Positions 6,402-12,901 of a stretch of DNA of 64,000 nucleotides are shown here, in pieces (within the stretch, counting starts at the first letter, position 1; each line of letters begins with the position of its first letter). This DNA comes from Ignavibacteria bacterium (GTDB lineage Bacteria > Bacteroidota > Ignavibacteria > Kapaibacteriales > UBA4661), in the NCBI GenBank assembly GCA_014654705.1, contig JACVZY010000025.1:4640-68639 (forward strand). Reading direction: 5' to 3'. The position numbers and the translations under genes are program-made. The notes beneath the pieces were generated by a model. It did not search any database. It saw only the letters and a list, made by a program, of their open reading frames with translations, and was not told the DNA's origin.

Positions 6402-7757
6402 ATGCGACAACAATCCTCACGCAATAGGCTTCCTCATCGGATTCTTGCAACTATCAAGCATCCGTTTGAGCAATTCATTCATGCCGAAACCTCAAGTGGA
6501 CTACTTTTGCTATTCTGCGGCATAATTGCTCTTCTCTGTGCAAATTCTCCGTTCAAAGAAGCATACCAACACCTCTGGGAAACACCCTTTAGCATCGGCT
6601 TCGGCAAGACGGTGATGGCAAAACCGCTCCACCACTGGATAAACGACGGTCTCATGGTGATTTTTTTCTTTGTGGTGGGACTGGAAATCAAGCGCGAACT
6701 GCTCGTAGGCGAACTTTCCACGGCAAAAAAGGCTGCTTTGCCTGTTATTGCGGCATTAGGCGGCATGGTCGTGCCGGCGCTTCTCTTCGCATCGTTGAAT
6801 GCAGGCACCCCTGCCGAGCGTGGCTGGGGAATACCAATGGCAACGGATATTGCCTTCGCGCTTGGCGTGGTAGCGCTTATGGGCAAGCGCGTTCCTTTCG
6901 TGCTGAAGGTATTTCTGGCAGCGCTGGCAATTGCGGATGATTTGGGGGCGGTTTTGGTTATTGCCATTTTTTACACAGCTGATATTCACGCCATGATGCT
7001 CCTTGCAGCCGCGGGCGCATTTGCACTCGCGCTTCTGGGAAATTTGCTGGGAGTTCGGAGTGTCCTCTTTTACTTGCTTGTGGGATTGCTCCTTTGGTTC
7101 TTTGTGCTGGAATCCGGTATTCATGCAACGATAGCAGGTGTGCTTCTTGCAATAGCGATACCCGCCAAACAGCGCATCAATGCTGATGAATTCACAGACA
7201 AAGCACGGGTGCTTATTAACGAATTTACGCGCCAAACGCACGAAAGCAAAAGTGTCCTTGCAAACCAGCAAGCACAAAGCGCTGTGCGTGATTTGGAGAT
7301 TTCCTGCGAGCAGGTACAAACGCCCCTGTCGCGTTTTGAAAATAATCTCCACCTTTGGGTCGCTTTTCTCATTATGCCAATTTTTGCTCTGGCAAATTCC
7401 AGCGTTACATTGGAAGGAAATCTCGGCGAAATGCTTATGCGACCATGCACAATGGGTATTTGGCTTGGATTGGTCATCGGCAAGCCCGTTGGGATAACAC
7501 TTTTCTGCTGGGCTGCTTGCCGACTGAAGTTGGCTCAACTGCCCGAAGGAGTGGGCTGGTTCGATATTCTTGCCATTGGCGCGGTGGCAGGCATTGGCTT
7601 CACCATGTCGCTATTTGTGCAAGGACTGGCATTTTCGGATGCGACACTTGCAATGGAAGCAAAGGTAGGAATTTTTGCTGCGTCGTTTTTGGCGGGTACT
7701 CTGGGCTTTCTTCTCTTTCGTCTTCGGCGCGGTGAGAAAGCAGCACTTTCATCGTAA
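6402..7757 (+). CDS. nhaA: Na+/H+ antiporter NhaA
   Basis: It aligns colinearly with E. coli NhaA. Shared motifs include WINDGLMVIFFFVVGLEIKRE, ATDIAFALGV, LAIADDLGAV and LKLAQLPEG. Confidence 0.93.
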   Translation: MRQQSSRNRLPHRILATIKHPFEQFIHAETSSGLLLLFCGIIALLCANSPFKEAYQHLWETPFSIGFGKTVMAKPLHHWINDGLMVIFFFVVGLEIKRELLVGELSTAKKAALPVIAALGGMVVPALLFASLNAGTPAERGWGIPMATDIAFALGVVALMGKRVPFVLKVFLAALAIADDLGAVLVIAIFYTADIHAMMLLAAAGAFALALLGNLLGVRSVLFYLLVGLLLWFFVLESGIHATIAGVLLAIAIPAKQRINADEFTDKARVLINEFTRQTHESKSVLANQQAQSAVRDLEISCEQVQTPLSRFENNLHLWVAFLIMPIFALANSSVTLEGNLGEMLMRPCTMGIWLGLVIGKPVGITLFCWAACRLKLAQLPEGVGWFDILAIGAVAGIGFTMSLFVQGLAFSDATLAMEAKVGIFAASFLAGTLGFLLFRLRRGEKAALSS

Positions 7758-7780: not shown

Positions 7781-8479
7781 CTAGCGCATCACCAGTTTAT
7801 ACCCCGACCCATGCACATTCATTATTTCCACAGTCGGGTCGAGTTTAAGATATTTTCTGAGCTTGGTAATGAACACATCCATGCTGCGCCCGTTGAAGTA
7901 GGAATCATCACCCCAAATCGTTTTGAGTGCTACTTCGCGCTTCATCACGTGGTTCGCATGGAGACAGAGCAAACGTAGAAGTTCTGCTTCCTTGCTGGTG
8001 AGTTGTGTGTTTGCCTCTGGGTGGCGTAGAAACTGATTAGGATAACTAAAGATATAATCGCCGATAGGAAAATTATCAGGGAGATTTTGCTCGGAAGTAG
8101 CGGGAGAAGTCTTTGCACGTCGCAAAATAGCTTGCACGCGCAGCATCAGCTCTTCGATGCTGAAGGGCTTGGTGATATAATCATCAGCACCGATATTAAA
8201 ACCCTCTATTTTGTCGGTCTGCATAGATTTTGCCGTTACAAAGACGATAGGCACGTGCTCATTATTTGCACGGATAGAGCGGGCAAGTGAGAATCCATCC
8301 TGCTTAGGCATCATCACGTCAATTATGCACAAATCAAACGTGCCCTTCTGAAAAGCAGTCCAGCCCGCATCGCCATCACGACTCAACTCAACGGCGTAGC
8401 CTTTGATGGATAAATATTCCTGCAAGACGCCACCCAAATTTGTGTCGTCTTCTACAAGCAAGATTTTATGCTGTTCCAT
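7781..8479 (-). CDS. OmpR-family response regulator transcription factor; probable start at the internal ATG MEQHKILLVEDD
   Basis: The receiver domain carries the LLVEDD and D-x-MMP motifs. The winged-helix C-terminus has the ...LT.KE..LL..L motif. It lies immediately downstream of the sensor kinase on the same strand. Confidence 0.88.
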   Translation of the reverse strand: MEQHKILLVEDDTNLGGVLQEYLSIKGYAVELSRDGDAGWTAFQKGTFDLCIIDVMMPKQDGFSLARSIRANNEHVPIVFVTAKSMQTDKIEGFNIGADDYITKPFSIEELMLRVQAILRRAKTSPATSEQNLPDNFPIGDYIFSYPNQFLRHPEANTQLTSKEAELLRLLCLHANHVMKREVALKTIWGDDSYFNGRSMDVFITKLRKYLKLDPTVEIMNVHGSGYKLVMR

Positions 8480-8588
8480 GATTAAGCCTTCGTTTGAATA
8501 TGTAGAAATTACCATCTCCAGCGCTGTACGCAAAATGGACGCTTTGGTTACAGGAACTTAACGCCCCACCAATGACCACACACGCTCC

Positions 8589-11165
8589 TTACGCCACAAA
8601 TCCAGATTTTGAAAGCGGCATCATCACCTCAAACGTACTGCCTTTACTTTGCTCGCTCTTTACCGATACCGTGCCACCATGCGCTTCTACAATCGTTTTG
8701 ACGTAGTTCAGCCCCAAGCCAAACCCTTTCACATCATGCCTGTTACCGGTTGGAACACGATAAAATTTCTCAAAAATCTGTTTCTGCGCTTCTCGTGTCA
8801 TACCGATACCGTTGTCCTGTATCGTTACCGCAAGTCCAGATGCAGTGTTGCGCGTTGAAACGATAATGTGTGGCGCATCTGGTGTGTATTTATTCGCATT
8901 GTCTAGTAAGTTGACGATGACGTTTCTGAAATGCGCTTCGTCCGCCTGCAAAATGGGCGTATGTGCTTCTAAACGCAGTTCAATACGACCTTGCTTTTGC
9001 TCTAACTGCAGCGCCAATGATTCAGCGACCGTCTCGATAAGTTGGTGTACATTGGTGGGAACAAGTTTGAGATTAAGCTCACCCCTGTCCATCTGTGCGG
9101 CTTGCAGCACTTTTTCAACGTGACCGGCAAGGCGCTTATTTTCGTCGTGGATGATATTCACAAAGCGCTCCACACGGACGCTTTCGCTCCGCACGTGGTT
9201 ATCTTTTAGCGCCTCGCTTGCAATAGAAATAGTCGCAATCGGCGTTTTGAGTTCGTGCGTCATGTTGTTGATAAAGTCCGTTTTCATGTCCGAGAGCTTT
9301 TTTTGCTTCACGAGCGCAAGCAAGGTAAAACCAAAGCAACCCATAATCAGCATCAAGAAGAGTGCCGACGAACCCAGCACAGGAGCGATACCTGCCAGTG
9401 TCAGTCCTTGCTGTTGGTCAGGAAAATGAATAGTCAAATAGTCTTTTTCGTCGCCACCCAGAATATCATTGGGAAAAAGCTGCACCCGAAATTCAGAGGT
9501 ACGAAGTGCTGCTGAAGCATGAACCGTTACGCGCTCAGGGTTGCTCGCGGTGGAAGCACGTACTATCAGCATAGAATCTTGCTTTTTAAGCACCTTGCGC
9601 CGCACTGAGGCGGGCATTTCTGCCCCGTGCAGAATTCCGTACTCATAACGTGCATTTACGCCGTTGCCACGCAGTTCAGCCGCCAGCAACGCATCCAAAT
9701 CGGTAAGCGGAACGCGCTCTAGTGCGGATTGCTTCCGACCAACCATATTTTCAAGGATATTTTCAATAAGGTCAACCTTATCAAGAATTTTACCAATGGT
9801 GTCACGTGATTGTGTGCGAGGTTCGGTAGAATTTTGTGCGTGGGCTTCCTTTTGCTTGTTTGCCGCCACACTCTGCTCGGCTCTGTGGAGCTGCGGTGCG
9901 GAGTGTTTCTTTGCTACCGATGGCGATTTCGGTGCAGCCTCTACGGAAGAAGCCGGTGCGGAGGGCTGTTCGGGCGGCGGGGACGGATTCATTGGGCTAC
10001 CCAATGGCATCATACGCATTTCAAAGCCAAACGAAGCCATATCTTGCCACGTCTGGCGAACTGCCATATTAAAGAGCGAATCTAAATCGCGTGTGTTTAC
10101 GCCCTGCATACGACGCAAACGCTCAATTTGTTGTTGCGACTTGGCAAATTCTCGTTGAAAATGGGCACTGAGTTGCCGTTCATTCAGGCGCATCAACTCT
10201 CGTTGGGCTTCTCGTTGAGCGTCGCGCGGGGACTCACGCTTGGTTATTACTTCACGGCGGTCTGTGCTGCCACTACTTGTGCTGCCACTACTTGGGTTTT
10301 CTATGCCGCGCTCTGCTGCGCTCATCTTATCTTCGAGTGTTTTTGAACCGTAAACTGAGTATGCTCCCGTTGCTCCTGATGCACGACGAAAACGCTGAAG
10401 AATAGAGTCGCGTTTATTGGCTTTTCCGTTCGGAATAAAGAATCGAAAGGGCTGCCCGTTGCCCGTCGGAATTGTTACCACAAGCCCTTGTGGTGGAGCA
10501 GGCGTCTGGGGAGGCATTTGGTGCTGGACATTGGGTGCGGGCTGAGAATGAGTAGCATCAGAGCGTTCGCTGCGAGCACGCGCACCAGATGAGCGCTCAC
10601 GCGATGAGGAGCTTTCGCGCGAGGAATTAAAAGAGACGTTGCCTCCATCAATGTGCATCTCAAAACTATTGCTACCATCCTGAACGCTTAGAAAAGGGGC
10701 ATTGTTTTTTGAAAATGCATTTTTCTCTGCACTTGATGATGATTTATTCGAGTTCGCTTTGTTCATAGTCACCGCAGAGGAATCTGTCATAGCTTGTTTT
10801 GCTGTTTCCGTGGCTTTCCGACTTAGCGGTGCTGTGCGTGGTGGTAATACGGAAGGATTTGTCGGTGCTACATCCGCTTCCGTAATTTGCAAAGGCTCGG
10901 CTTTACGGCTTGTTGGCATAGTCCGGCGCAATTTTGCTGCCTCTGCTGTTTTACGCACATCATTGAGACTCTGCATAATCAGCGCTTTGGTCTCTTTGAT
11001 TTCGAGCTGACGTGCAACATTGTTAAGCGCACGATGGACGTGCTCCTTGAAAAGACTTTGCTCTAGCGCCGACGCCCGCGCAAGCCAATATACTTGCACA
11101 ATAATGATACCCAACAACCCGATGAGCATCAGTGCGAGAATTGTCCAGATGGTTCGCTTTTTCAT
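8589..11165 (-). CDS. sensor histidine kinase with a very long low-complexity region between two TM helices
   Basis: TM1 is at the N-terminus (ILALMLIGLLGIIIVQVYWLA). About 570 aa of Ser/Pro/Gln/Ala-rich sequence follows. TM2 is LFLMLIMGCFGFTLLALV. The HisKA H-box is MTHELKTPIATI, and the HATPase_c domain carries the DNGIGM and GLGL motifs. Confidence 0.85.
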   Translation of the reverse strand: MKKRTIWTILALMLIGLLGIIIVQVYWLARASALEQSLFKEHVHRALNNVARQLEIKETKALIMQSLNDVRKTAEAAKLRRTMPTSRKAEPLQITEADVAPTNPSVLPPRTAPLSRKATETAKQAMTDSSAVTMNKANSNKSSSSAEKNAFSKNNAPFLSVQDGSNSFEMHIDGGNVSFNSSRESSSSRERSSGARARSERSDATHSQPAPNVQHQMPPQTPAPPQGLVVTIPTGNGQPFRFFIPNGKANKRDSILQRFRRASGATGAYSVYGSKTLEDKMSAAERGIENPSSGSTSSGSTDRREVITKRESPRDAQREAQRELMRLNERQLSAHFQREFAKSQQQIERLRRMQGVNTRDLDSLFNMAVRQTWQDMASFGFEMRMMPLGSPMNPSPPPEQPSAPASSVEAAPKSPSVAKKHSAPQLHRAEQSVAANKQKEAHAQNSTEPRTQSRDTIGKILDKVDLIENILENMVGRKQSALERVPLTDLDALLAAELRGNGVNARYEYGILHGAEMPASVRRKVLKKQDSMLIVRASTASNPERVTVHASAALRTSEFRVQLFPNDILGGDEKDYLTIHFPDQQQGLTLAGIAPVLGSSALFLMLIMGCFGFTLLALVKQKKLSDMKTDFINNMTHELKTPIATISIASEALKDNHVRSESVRVERFVNIIHDENKRLAGHVEKVLQAAQMDRGELNLKLVPTNVHQLIETVAESLALQLEQKQGRIELRLEAHTPILQADEAHFRNVIVNLLDNANKYTPDAPHIIVSTRNTASGLAVTIQDNGIGMTREAQKQIFEKFYRVPTGNRHDVKGFGLGLNYVKTIVEAHGGTVSVKSEQSKGSTFEVMMPLSKSGFVA

Positions 11166-11261: not shown

Positions 11262-12530
11262 TTAACGACTTGGTCTGCCCAAACGACCACGAAATAGCAC
11301 ACGGCGGTACACTACCCACGCCATACTACCATACACCATAAACCACAGAACCATAGACAATGCGGTTTTGAAAAGGCTCACCATTGCAGAAGCGTGTGGC
11401 GATGAACCGTTTGCTGTGCGGAAAACAGGATTAAGAGCAATAGTGGTGTTCGGCGAAATGACCTCAATACGGATGTAGGTATCATCAGCGCGGAAACGGT
11501 ATCCGGTGGTATTTTGCCCCGTCACGACGCTGCGGACAGCACCCGATTGTCCCACAAAGCGCATCATCACAACGTTTGAGTCCATCATTACCGTCAGCGA
11601 ATCGCCCTGAATAGTGAGACGTTGCAAGCGGCAATCATTCAACGCATTCAAACAGCTATCCCGCAAATGCCCTTCGCCCAGCCCGCGCCAGCGATCTCTG
11701 AGAAGACTGTTTAATTTGACAGCATAACAACGACCTTCTTGCAATGCGCTTAAGACGCTATCCTTCTGTGATGAAGTGGCATATAGCATTGTCCAACACA
11801 CACCATTTTCACCCACACCGTTCACATCATGCGAATCATCGGCGCCCATTGCCCAGGGAGTACGCCCCGCAGACCATGCAGAATCAAACAACTCTAAGGA
11901 TTCGCGGAAATGATTGAATACTTCCATCCCATCATAATCTGTCAGAAAGCGCATAGATTCCGGCGAGTACGCACCCTGCCAAATAGGATGCGCCAGAATA
12001 ACCACAGGCGTAACTTCTTTCAAACGCTTGATATTATGCTGCTTCTGCGGCATCCAATGCCCGAATACATAATCCGTCCAAACGACATCTTGCGCACCAA
12101 CGCAGATTTGATGTGCCTTGCGGACATTATATCCATGCTCGTAGGAAGAAATATAGTTCGTGGCAAAGTCCGGCAACGTGTCCATGCGATGATAGTTGGA
12201 CACCGCCGCAACATCGTACCCAAGACGTTTGTAGGATGCACTGAGCGCTGCAAGCGACGAATTGCCATGCGATAGACCACTCCACGCCACAGAATGGGCG
12301 TGAAAGTTTGCTTTCCGCCACGTTGCTTTAGAGGTTGTGTCGTTAATTGCAGAATAGGGATTCAACAACACTGCGCCTGAATGGGGTACGGTTGCAGGCA
12401 TATCATAGATAGGACAAAGTGCGTAGGGAATGCTTGCAAGAACGATTGCAGTAAGTAGAATACCACAAAGTATCTTCAACGGCAAAAAAATGGTATAACG
12501 TACAAAGCGCTTCCACACAGATTTTCTCAT
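11262..12530 (-). CDS. membrane-anchored putative PHP-domain / metal-dependent phosphoesterase-like protein
   Basis: An N-terminal TM is followed by His-rich motifs (FHAHS, NYH, ILAHP, DDSHD) that resemble the PHP/CehA-McbA metallohydrolase fold. This identification has not been confirmed by any search. Confidence 0.4.
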   Translation of the reverse strand: MRKSVWKRFVRYTIFLPLKILCGILLTAIVLASIPYALCPIYDMPATVPHSGAVLLNPYSAINDTTSKATWRKANFHAHSVAWSGLSHGNSSLAALSASYKRLGYDVAAVSNYHRMDTLPDFATNYISSYEHGYNVRKAHQICVGAQDVVWTDYVFGHWMPQKQHNIKRLKEVTPVVILAHPIWQGAYSPESMRFLTDYDGMEVFNHFRESLELFDSAWSAGRTPWAMGADDSHDVNGVGENGVCWTMLYATSSQKDSVLSALQEGRCYAVKLNSLLRDRWRGLGEGHLRDSCLNALNDCRLQRLTIQGDSLTVMMDSNVVMMRFVGQSGAVRSVVTGQNTTGYRFRADDTYIRIEVISPNTTIALNPVFRTANGSSPHASAMVSLFKTALSMVLWFMVYGSMAWVVYRRVLFRGRLGRPSR

Positions 12531-12901
12531 TGTCGTTGCTCCCAGTACCGTTTTGCTTCATTCAAAAAAAGTCGCGTGTCGCGCACAGCCATACGAAACA
12601 TCAGCACATTGTCAGCAGCAAGCAGTTTCTTTGCTGATTCACTTGTGGCAAGCACCATCATTGCGGTCAAGTGCGCTTTGCAGAAAAGCGCGTCGTCATG
12701 GGCTGCACGGGTGATGCGGACGAGAGAATCAATCTTCACCGAATCACGCTGCTGCACGGTGGCAAATGCTGCAATCAGTGTGTTGGCTTGGTCAAGAGCG
12801 TACGTAGTTTTTGCACAGGCGGTGGTGTCAGCCGTTGCGGCAAATACCGTTTCTGCTGAACACGACAAAACAAATATGACGGAAAGGAAGTATAATCGCA
12901 T
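12527..12901 (-). CDS. small secreted hypothetical protein
   Basis: It has a signal peptide (LSVIFVLSCSAETVFA). Its stop overlaps the start of the downstream PHP-like gene by 4 bp (ATGA), which suggests translational coupling. Confidence 0.5.
   Translation of the reverse strand: MRLYFLSVIFVLSCSAETVFAATADTTACAKTTYALDQANTLIAAFATVQQRDSVKIDSLVRITRAAHDDALFCKAHLTAMMVLATSESAKKLLAADNVLMFRMAVRDTRLFLNEAKRYWEQRQ

Follow-up and report, generated by a model that had tools for sequence, protein, structure and literature searches.

Architecture and topology of the sensor kinase

The analysed window is a stretch of 64,000 nucleotides (nt) from an Ignavibacteria bacterium (assembly GCA_014654705.1, contig JACVZY010000025.1). 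The subject of this analysis is a histidine kinase gene within the window, an open reading frame (ORF) at 8589..11165 on the minus strand with a product of 858 amino acids (aa). Its reading frame, domains and family links identify it as an RprX-family sensor histidine kinase. The gene is the Kapaibacterium-lineage version of the RprX-type sensor kinase of Bacteroidota, which has two transmembrane (TM) helices, and represents an unusual variant and not a new kind of sensor. The first-pass annotation had described a kinase in which some 570 mostly low-complexity residues separate the two helices. All features of the gene given below lie on the minus strand.

The protein begins with MKKR ahead of the first helix (TM1, residues ~7-29; 11079..11147), which reaches a Kyte-Doolittle (KD) maximum of 2.67 over 19 residues. 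TM1 carries a family-wide Q..YW motif, of which Q24, Y26 and W27 are invariant in the alignment, and is also kept in the short forms of the family. The second helix (TM2, residues 598-620; 9306..9374) has a KD maximum of 2.54 and runs without a HAMP domain into the helix of the dimerization and histidine phosphotransfer (DHp) domain, with a single helix predicted by AlphaFold2 (AF2) over residues 588-626. Peaks of the KD 19-mer profile are limited to residues 3-34 and 587-621. The HisKA/DHp domain comprises residues 627-695 (9081..9287; Pfam PF00512, E 2.9e-12) and contains the phospho-acceptor His637 in the motif MTHELKTP, invariant among the homologues. The HATPase_c catalytic domain spans residues 742-852 (8610..8942; PF02518, E 9.1e-27). 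The KD peaks and Pfam matches agree with the earlier placement of TM1 at about residues 7-30 and of TM2 just ahead of HisKA.

Pfam detects HisKA and HATPase_c alone in the 858-aa kinase, with no HAMP, PAS or Cache match, and NCBIfam returns no meaningful match to residues 1-623. A HAMP domain occupies ~50 residues between TM2 and DHp; here TM2 ends at ~620 and HisKA starts at 627. Identity with PhoR was considered and rejected: the score is 167 on TIGR02966 (cutoff 334) and 110 on the Bacteroidetes PhoR model (cutoff 500), and the PhoR matches are confined to the kinase core. Automatic annotation labels homologues 'HAMP domain-containing sensor histidine kinase' (NCBI) or 'phosphate regulon sensor kinase PhoR' (JGI). 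Neither label holds, as the protein has no HAMP domain and no room for one, and its PhoR scores are far below the cutoffs.

The Ser-rich, Pro/Gln-rich and charged helical strings quoted in the first-pass annotation are all found in the loop: SSSSAEK at residues 142-148, ESSSSRERSSGARARSERS at 184-202, MPPQTPAPPQ at 216-225, SSGSTSSGST at 292-301, PSPPPEQPSAPASS at 394-407, and the charged helical segment ELMRLNERQ...ERLRR at 323-352. A tandem-repeat origin of the low complexity was rejected, the sole repeat being one 15-nt unit in 2.1 copies that encodes SSGST SSGST. The architecture is not an assembly artefact, because 15 homologues of 823-957 aa from independent assemblies share the same open frame. 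Promoter and terminator scans of the locus give results at background level.

The loop of ~565 residues between the helices is predicted to be periplasmic, in an N-in/C-in arrangement with which each line of sequence evidence agrees. The flanks of the TM helices contain seven Lys or Arg residues on the proposed cytoplasmic side (MKKR before TM1 and KQKK...K after TM2) and three on the loop side, and both helices are almost invariant across the homologues. The ATP-dependent catalytic core begins six residues past TM2, and the loop is therefore placed on the opposite side of the membrane. The earlier proposal of an extracytoplasmic loop is supported by these two conserved hydrophobic helices, their charged flanks and the position of the kinase right after TM2. 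A cytoplasmic location, in which the first hydrophobic segment is no membrane helix or the protein adopts another topology, is hardly credible: both segments exceed a KD value of 2.5 over 19 residues and are nearly invariant, the kinase domain and the Lys/Arg flanks favour N-in/C-in, and PDZ domains in relatives and conserved sequons of O-glycosylation type occur in the loop and not in the cytoplasmic part.

Relationship to the RprX/RprY systems

The RprX/RprY system is present in Bacteroides fragilis as well as in Prevotella, Tannerella and some Porphyromonas. To our knowledge, its type of sensor domain is represented by no Pfam model and no solved structure. The relatives of the window kinase fall into long and short forms. 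A search with residues 1-623 retrieves 15 proteins, of which 14 are full-length (823-957 aa) and cover 98-100% of the loop at 33-96% identity, so the architecture does recur; some of these long forms are named Candidatus Kapaibacterium or Bacteroidota. In a scan of one genome per species, the long form is confined to Kapaibacterium and to metagenome-assembled genomes (MAGs) labelled 'Ignavibacteria' (loci L001-L007). At one of these MAG loci (L006:8883-11353), the orthologous kinase is broken into ORFs of 662 and 166 aa by a frameshift in the kinase domain, representing either a pseudogene or an assembly error.

The short homologues detected by tblastn are collinear with query residues 1-850 across ~1500-1620 nt (476-550 aa) and occur in Chitinophagales, Cytophagales, Saprospiraceae, Sphingobacteriales and Bacteroidales. 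The multiple alignment of the family shares TM1 with Q..YW and a following helix of the pattern E..F...V..AL..V...LE, then a pre-TM2 module (...R.....LD.LL...L...GI...YEYGV ... LFPND ... L.V.FP), TM2 and the junction RQKKLSDMKTDFINNMTHELKTP. An exhaustive phmmer search with residues 1-623 against 1.84 billion representatives identifies 768 cluster representatives at E<=1e-3. Among the best 150 of these 768, matches mostly consist of two or three stretches, the top stretch lying at query residue 1 to ~70 or at 450-623; the closest long-form relatives differ in matching the entire loop or its C-terminal part from residue ~200-310. A profile of the short-form sensor regions reaches at least 2830 clusters, mostly of 494-560 aa. 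The window kinase has the RprX-type plan throughout, namely two TM helices around a loop, HisKA and HATPase_c right after TM2, and neither HAMP nor PAS.

A direct comparison with RprX was made with a query taken to be the RprX sequence, which matched a 519-aa protein cluster, P0277, at 98% identity. This cluster includes one B. fragilis protein, and the gene directly downstream of P0277 scores 447.6 bits on the NCBIfam RprY model, whose cutoff is 370. In B. fragilis, rprX adjoins rprY (PMC6032018), and P0277 is assigned to RprX on the basis of this adjacency and the RprY score of the downstream gene. By BLASTP, the window kinase matches P0277 in two blocks, residues 1-76 against 1-76 (E 9e-8) and residues 466-851 against 155-515 (36% identity, E 9e-75), the second including the pre-TM2 module. 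An hhalign comparison with an RprX-type alignment gives a probability of 100%, with the second block reaching back to residue 449. The similarity to B. fragilis RprX thus extends beyond the kinase core into the sensor region. The two blocks are collinear, and therefore ~370 residues of the window kinase occupy the place of ~60 in RprX.

The likeness to RprX comprises TM1, a periplasmic loop, TM2, HisKA and HATPase_c without HAMP, together with collinear similarity in both halves of the sensor core and the junction RQKKLSxMKxDFINNMTHE. In contrast with RprX, a protein of 519 aa with a loop of ~250 aa, the window kinase has a loop of ~570 aa, which is longer because ~367 aa replace roughly 60 RprX residues (77-137).

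The gene order also corresponds to that of B. fragilis RprX/RprY, the kinase being followed by a regulator of OmpR type. The regulator of the window (7781..8533, minus strand; Response_reg and Trans_reg_C domains) begins 55 nt downstream of the kinase, as the first-pass annotation had it when placing the OmpR-type gene immediately downstream, and a regulator adjoins the kinase in the same order in 77 of 80 related loci. Its best NCBIfam model is RprY (NF051850), with 315.5 bits, followed by the next model at 184. Regulators beside family kinases in four other orders score 305-334 bits on the RprY model.

Core, islands and linkers of the loop

The loop is composed of three kinds of sequence, and its ~565 residues divide into ~231 aa of linker, 136 aa of islands conserved within the clade and ~200 aa of family core (residues 30-82 and 450-597). 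The first half of the core is a post-TM1 helix (residues 30-82; 10920..11078), recognised by AF2, phmmer and BLASTP, and the second is the pre-TM2 alpha/beta module (residues 450-597; 9375..9818), recognised by phmmer, hhalign and AF2, with the pattern DTIxKIxDKVDLIENILENM ... YEYGI ... LFPNDI ... YLxxxFP. Between the two halves lies a clade-specific insert (residues 83-449; 9819..10919), matched only by close relatives and distinguished by its conservation, predicted structure, substitution rates, length, charge and composition. Four islands, A to D, are embedded in the insert, and its linkers are residues 83-157, 181-225, 263-272, 282-319 and 387-449.

Conservation was mapped over the 14 long-form homologues. 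Core residues 31-75, 453-513 and 553-597 show values of 0.74-0.89 and no indels. In the linker segments of the map (76-157, 181-225, 263-272, 282-319 and 387-452) conservation falls to 0.41-0.52, with 1.3-4.1 alignment columns per residue and 55-70% of residues being S/T/P/Q/N/G/A. The islands have values of 0.66-0.76. Island A (residues 158-180; 10626..10694; FLSVQDGSNSFEMHIDGGNVSFN; conservation 0.66) is a predicted beta-hairpin with strands 167-172 and 175-180. Island B (226-262; 10380..10490; GLVVTIPT..GQPFRFFIP..KRDSILQRFRR; 0.71) is predicted to form a hairpin of strands 227-232 and 240-245 and a helix at 255-264. Island C (273-281; 10323..10349; SKTLEDKMS; 0.76) is the conserved start of a short helix at 277-285. 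Island D (320-386; 10008..10208; 0.71) comprises the long helix 313-353 and a helix at 359-377, and ends in FGFEMRM. The motif (S/G)FEM(H/R) occurs twice in the kinase, at residues 167-171 (nt ~10653-10667), where it ends the first strand of island A, and at residues 380-384 (nt ~10014-10028), where it ends island D. The variable region of RprX (SEFELKM) and of other short forms has look-alikes of the form F/Y-x-F-E/D-M/L, with no homology demonstrable by hhalign. The islands did not align by hhalign with the short variable region of RprX (residues 77-137), and no homology is claimed for them.

The structure of residues 1-627 was predicted by AF2 from an alignment of 29 sequences, giving a mean predicted local distance difference test (pLDDT) score of 63.9 and a predicted template modelling (pTM) score of 0.45. 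An initial full-length model from 14 sequences had a mean pLDDT of 49 and is usable for secondary structure alone. In the 29-sequence model, residues 1-80 have a pLDDT of 86 or more, residues 311-350 of 80-92, residues 451-520 of 70-95 and residues 551-627 of 85-90, and values below 50 are found at 93-165, 183-223, 247-256, 264-276, 285-310 and 380-449. An unbroken helix at 3-82 represents TM1 and the post-TM1 segment, with pLDDT of 86-96 up to residue 80. The second half of the core consists of helices 450-475 and 481-500, strands 508-513 and 532-537, helix 548-555 and strands 560-563 and 575-580, followed by the TM2 helix. In the islands, the model places beta-hairpins at 167-180 and 227-245, the short helices 255-264 and 277-285, and long helices at 313-353 and 359-377. 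The core segments 30-82 and 450-597 are accordingly described as a conserved module that is predicted to be folded, with pLDDT of 70-95.

Selection on these parts was measured as the ratio of nonsynonymous to synonymous substitution rates (dN/dS), with the closest genome locus (L001) as reference and a dS of ~0.7. The kinase domain has a ratio of 0.030, the islands have 0.072, the core 0.087 and the linkers 0.318, and the four islands are as strongly constrained as the core. The insert measures 339-433 aa with a net charge of +9 to +21 in 14/14 long forms. The linkers of all 14 contain 51-68% S/T/P/Q/N/G/A (65% in the window protein) and lie on the disordered side of the Uversky charge-hydropathy line. 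The core (30-82 and 450-597) lies on its ordered side. Signs of intrinsic disorder, namely composition, pLDDT <50, indels and a dN/dS of 0.32, all of them proxies, are found in the linkers only (~231 aa). The statement that the ~570-aa loop is mostly compositionally biased therefore holds for the linkers, which do exist, and fails for the remainder, only ~231 of ~565 residues being low-complexity, poorly conserved linker.

No known globular sensor domain was detected in the loop, as the first-pass annotation had anticipated: PAS, Cache, PBP and 4HB went undetected by Pfam, NCBIfam, a PDB sequence search and Foldseek. The PDB sequence search with the sensor profile matched no further than the first turns of HisKA, and when the AF2 model was compared with the PDB by Foldseek, no match had E<2.7. 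The lack of Pfam, NCBIfam or PDB-sequence matches in residues 1-623 and the large stretches of low pLDDT would suit a loop that is a disordered sensing region over its whole length of ~570 residues, with no folded sensor, acting through polymer or envelope binding or through cleavage. This explanation is very unlikely. Residues 30-82 and 450-597 are conserved in hundreds of family clusters that have no insert; they are predicted to be helical and alpha/beta with pLDDT of 70-95, lie on the ordered Uversky side and have a dN/dS of 0.087; and RprX has ~60 residues in the place of ~370. The earlier idea of a long disordered sensing region survives in part, since a large portion of the loop behaves as disordered by pLDDT, Uversky position, indels and dN/dS, but not for the conserved, predicted folded segments shared with kinases of 480-550 aa, B. 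fragilis RprX among them.

A second possibility is a single large, discontinuous sensor domain folded from the islands together with the core, in which the linkers are long surface loops and the insert elaborates a ligand-binding fold. The islands do have regular predicted secondary structure, with the helix 313-353 at pLDDT 80-92, and are constrained like the core. Against such a fold, loops of 38-75 residues with pLDDT <50 separate every pair of islands, which is unusual for a single domain, and pTM is just 0.45; the proposal is viewed as doubtful, although it merits some weight.

The position of the insert is variable throughout the family, in which loops range from ~200 to >600 aa. A survey of 257 family members predicted to have two TM helices gives loop lengths with a median of 258 aa and a 95th percentile of 566 aa; the loop of the window kinase measures 577 aa on this scale. 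Two kinases from uncultured Bacteroidota, L042:2119-4068 (MAG-134) and L073:7579-9549 (MAG-29), carry a Pfam PDZ domain at the insertion site of the window protein (residues ~141-227, E 1e-11 to 1e-16). They share its family core and its site of insertion, flanked by the post-TM1 helix and the pre-TM2 module, and differ in having a recognisable folded domain where the window protein has disordered linkers and short islands with no known domain. The presence of PDZ suggests that input modules can be plugged in at this site. Loops of 400-600 aa with moderately biased composition and no recognisable domain are present in several unrelated clades, and Pfam detects no known domain in 11 short-form sensor regions or in 10 other long-loop members. 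A separate metagenomic clade (P0046, P0057, P0084 and P0102; locus L081 for P0046) with the N-terminus MKKYTIRWIIGLISIALLGL has independently gained loops of 470-590 aa in which Gln, Pro, Arg and Ser are abundant, such as QQQPVQQQPAQQRPVQQQPARQQRQQ; these loops have no Pfam domain, and an OmpR-type regulator follows the kinase.

The insert may alternatively be near-neutral, a low-complexity growth that a permissive surface loop tolerates and that contributes nothing to signalling. The hypervariability of the site across the family, the linkers evolving 3.5-4x faster than the core and gathering indels, and the independent long inserts in other clades all speak for this explanation. It is nonetheless judged improbable, given that the islands have a dN/dS as low as that of the core (0.072), the linker value of 0.32 is well below 1, length, positive charge and composition are kept in 14/14 homologues down to ~33% identity, and Asp128 (D128) is invariant within an otherwise unconserved linker.

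D128 belongs to a set of candidate glycosylation motifs. Bacteroidota have a general O-glycosylation motif, D-(S/T)-(A/I/L/V/M/T), that is modified in non-cytoplasmic proteins only and is usually fully occupied (PMC8550257; PMC12871550). The loop contains four copies, D253-S-I, D362-S-L, D455-T-I and D530-S-M, compared with 1.3 expected (shuffle p ~0.035), and the cytoplasmic part of the kinase contains none. Three of the four are found in 14/14 sequences, D253-S-I and D362-S-L among them, and one in 12/14; in those present in 14/14, the third position varies among allowed residues only. D128, D253-S254 and D362-S363 are among the only invariant residues of the insert, and D455-T456 and D530 are invariant as well. 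D128-S-S fits the broader motif of PMC12871550 and appears as D-S-S/L/A in 12/14 homologues; lying in an unstructured linker, D128 is the best candidate for a true sequon. Across the window and seven Kapaibacterium-type loci (L002-L008), the motif occurs 63 times in crudely classed secreted ORFs against 27.9 expected, and this 2.26-fold enrichment, next to 1.28-fold in the cytoplasmic ORFs of the same set, suggests that the lineage has a general O-glycosylation system. With the motif conserved in four to five copies outside the cytoplasm, the loop resembles the O-glycoproteins of Bacteroidota; unlike established members, it is a candidate glycoprotein, and three of the four motifs may be structural.

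Proposed mode of signalling and neighbouring genes

The preferred interpretation, to which we assign a probability of about 0.8, is that the gene encodes an RprX-type kinase paired with an RprY-like regulator, that its sensor is a two-piece core, and that the clade-specific insert at the hypervariable site is an accessory to this sensor and not a replacement for it. Signalling is most likely canonical, from the RprX-like kinase to the RprY-like regulator, and the conserved core module is more likely than the disordered insert to be the site of sensing. The core (30-82 and 450-597) would read the signal, as in the short forms, and helix movements passed through TM1 and TM2 directly into DHp, without a HAMP domain, would lead to autophosphorylation of His637 and then to phosphotransfer to the regulator. 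The insert would act as a flexible basic extension, with probable O-glycosylation, through which the conserved islands are offered to a partner, candidates being the core, the envelope or a co-conserved secreted protein of 124 aa encoded upstream. Alternatively, it may shield or space the core and so tune the kinase. The insert may thus serve as a tether, as a docking region or as a carrier of glycans.

Several points weigh against this interpretation. The regulator, at 315.5 bits, falls below the RprY equivalog cutoff of 370, so strict RprY/RprX orthology is tentative. Disorder is judged exclusively by proxies, namely pLDDT from a shallow alignment, composition and evolutionary rate. D253, D362 and D455 lie 0-3 residues from the N-terminus of a predicted helix (with D455 five residues inside 450-475), where Asp, Ser and Thr caps are common, so their conservation need not mean glycosylation; D530 precedes a predicted strand. 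The contacts proposed for the islands are conjectural.

Disordered linkers that span the periplasm include the Pro-rich spacer of TonB and the linker of LpoB. The insert resembles them in being Pro/Ser/Ala-rich, low-complexity and extracytoplasmic, with length and composition kept over sequence. In contrast to these terminal tethers with one end domain, it is an internal loop that returns to the membrane-proximal core. No direct precedent for a long disordered sensor region in the periplasmic part of a histidine kinase emerged from a search of the literature. A bolder version of the accessory role has the glycosylated, net-basic loop spanning the periplasm and its islands docking on the envelope or on the 124-aa protein, a 'fishing-line' input for remote sensing of the outer envelope, with the RprX variable site serving in general as a plug-in slot for PDZ, disordered regions and others; such an arrangement would be something of a long shot.

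RprX/RprY-type systems are among the most widespread two-component systems of Bacteroidota, as the at least 2830 clusters found by profile indicate. The locus presents their sensor as two conserved pieces around a hypervariable slot that accepts a PDZ domain or hundreds of disordered residues, and in one lineage selection maintains the length, charge, composition and embedded motifs of the disordered insert. A signalling role for the insert, if it has one, would make it one of few long disordered segments to work at the periplasmic input of a histidine kinase. Should it have no such role, the locus still delimits the minimal sensor core of the family (30-82 and 450-597), which is useful for structural and ligand studies. 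The delineation of this uncharacterised core and of the plug-in site is the more useful outcome.

The genes upstream of the kinase, both on the minus strand, are those named in the first-pass annotation. The gene for the small secreted protein (12527..12901; 124 aa with a signal peptide) overlaps the next gene by 4 nt, and its product contains two Cys residues and two D-S-V/L motifs and has no Pfam or NCBIfam match. Five Kapaibacterium-type loci (L001-L004 and L006), two of which are without the PHP-like gene, have it upstream of the long-form kinase, and no short-form locus has it; the protein may be a periplasmic accessory partner of the kinase. The other gene (11262..12530) encodes a 422-aa membrane protein with a weak match to the CehA/McbA (PHP-like) metallohydrolases (NCBIfam NF038032, 38.5 bits against a cutoff of 80). 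This gene occurs in just three related loci and is ruled out as an obligate partner.

Downstream, a gene for an NhaA Na+/H+ antiporter (6402-7757, plus strand; PF06965, E 1.8e-150) stands tail-to-tail with that of the RprY-like regulator. The two abut in the window, L001 and L002, and NhaA lies within 8 kb in L004. A family-wide link was rejected, since no more than 3 of 80 related loci, all from close relatives, have NhaA close to the kinase, and the adjacency is missing from the other 77. Studies of RprY in Porphyromonas gingivalis (PMC3646045, PMC6032018) tie the regulator to Na+ depletion and oxidative stress (PMC3646045). Adjacency of rprXY and NhaA is reported in P. asaccharolytica and P. 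uenonis (PMC6032018), and the NhaA gene next to the window operon recalls this Porphyromonas arrangement.

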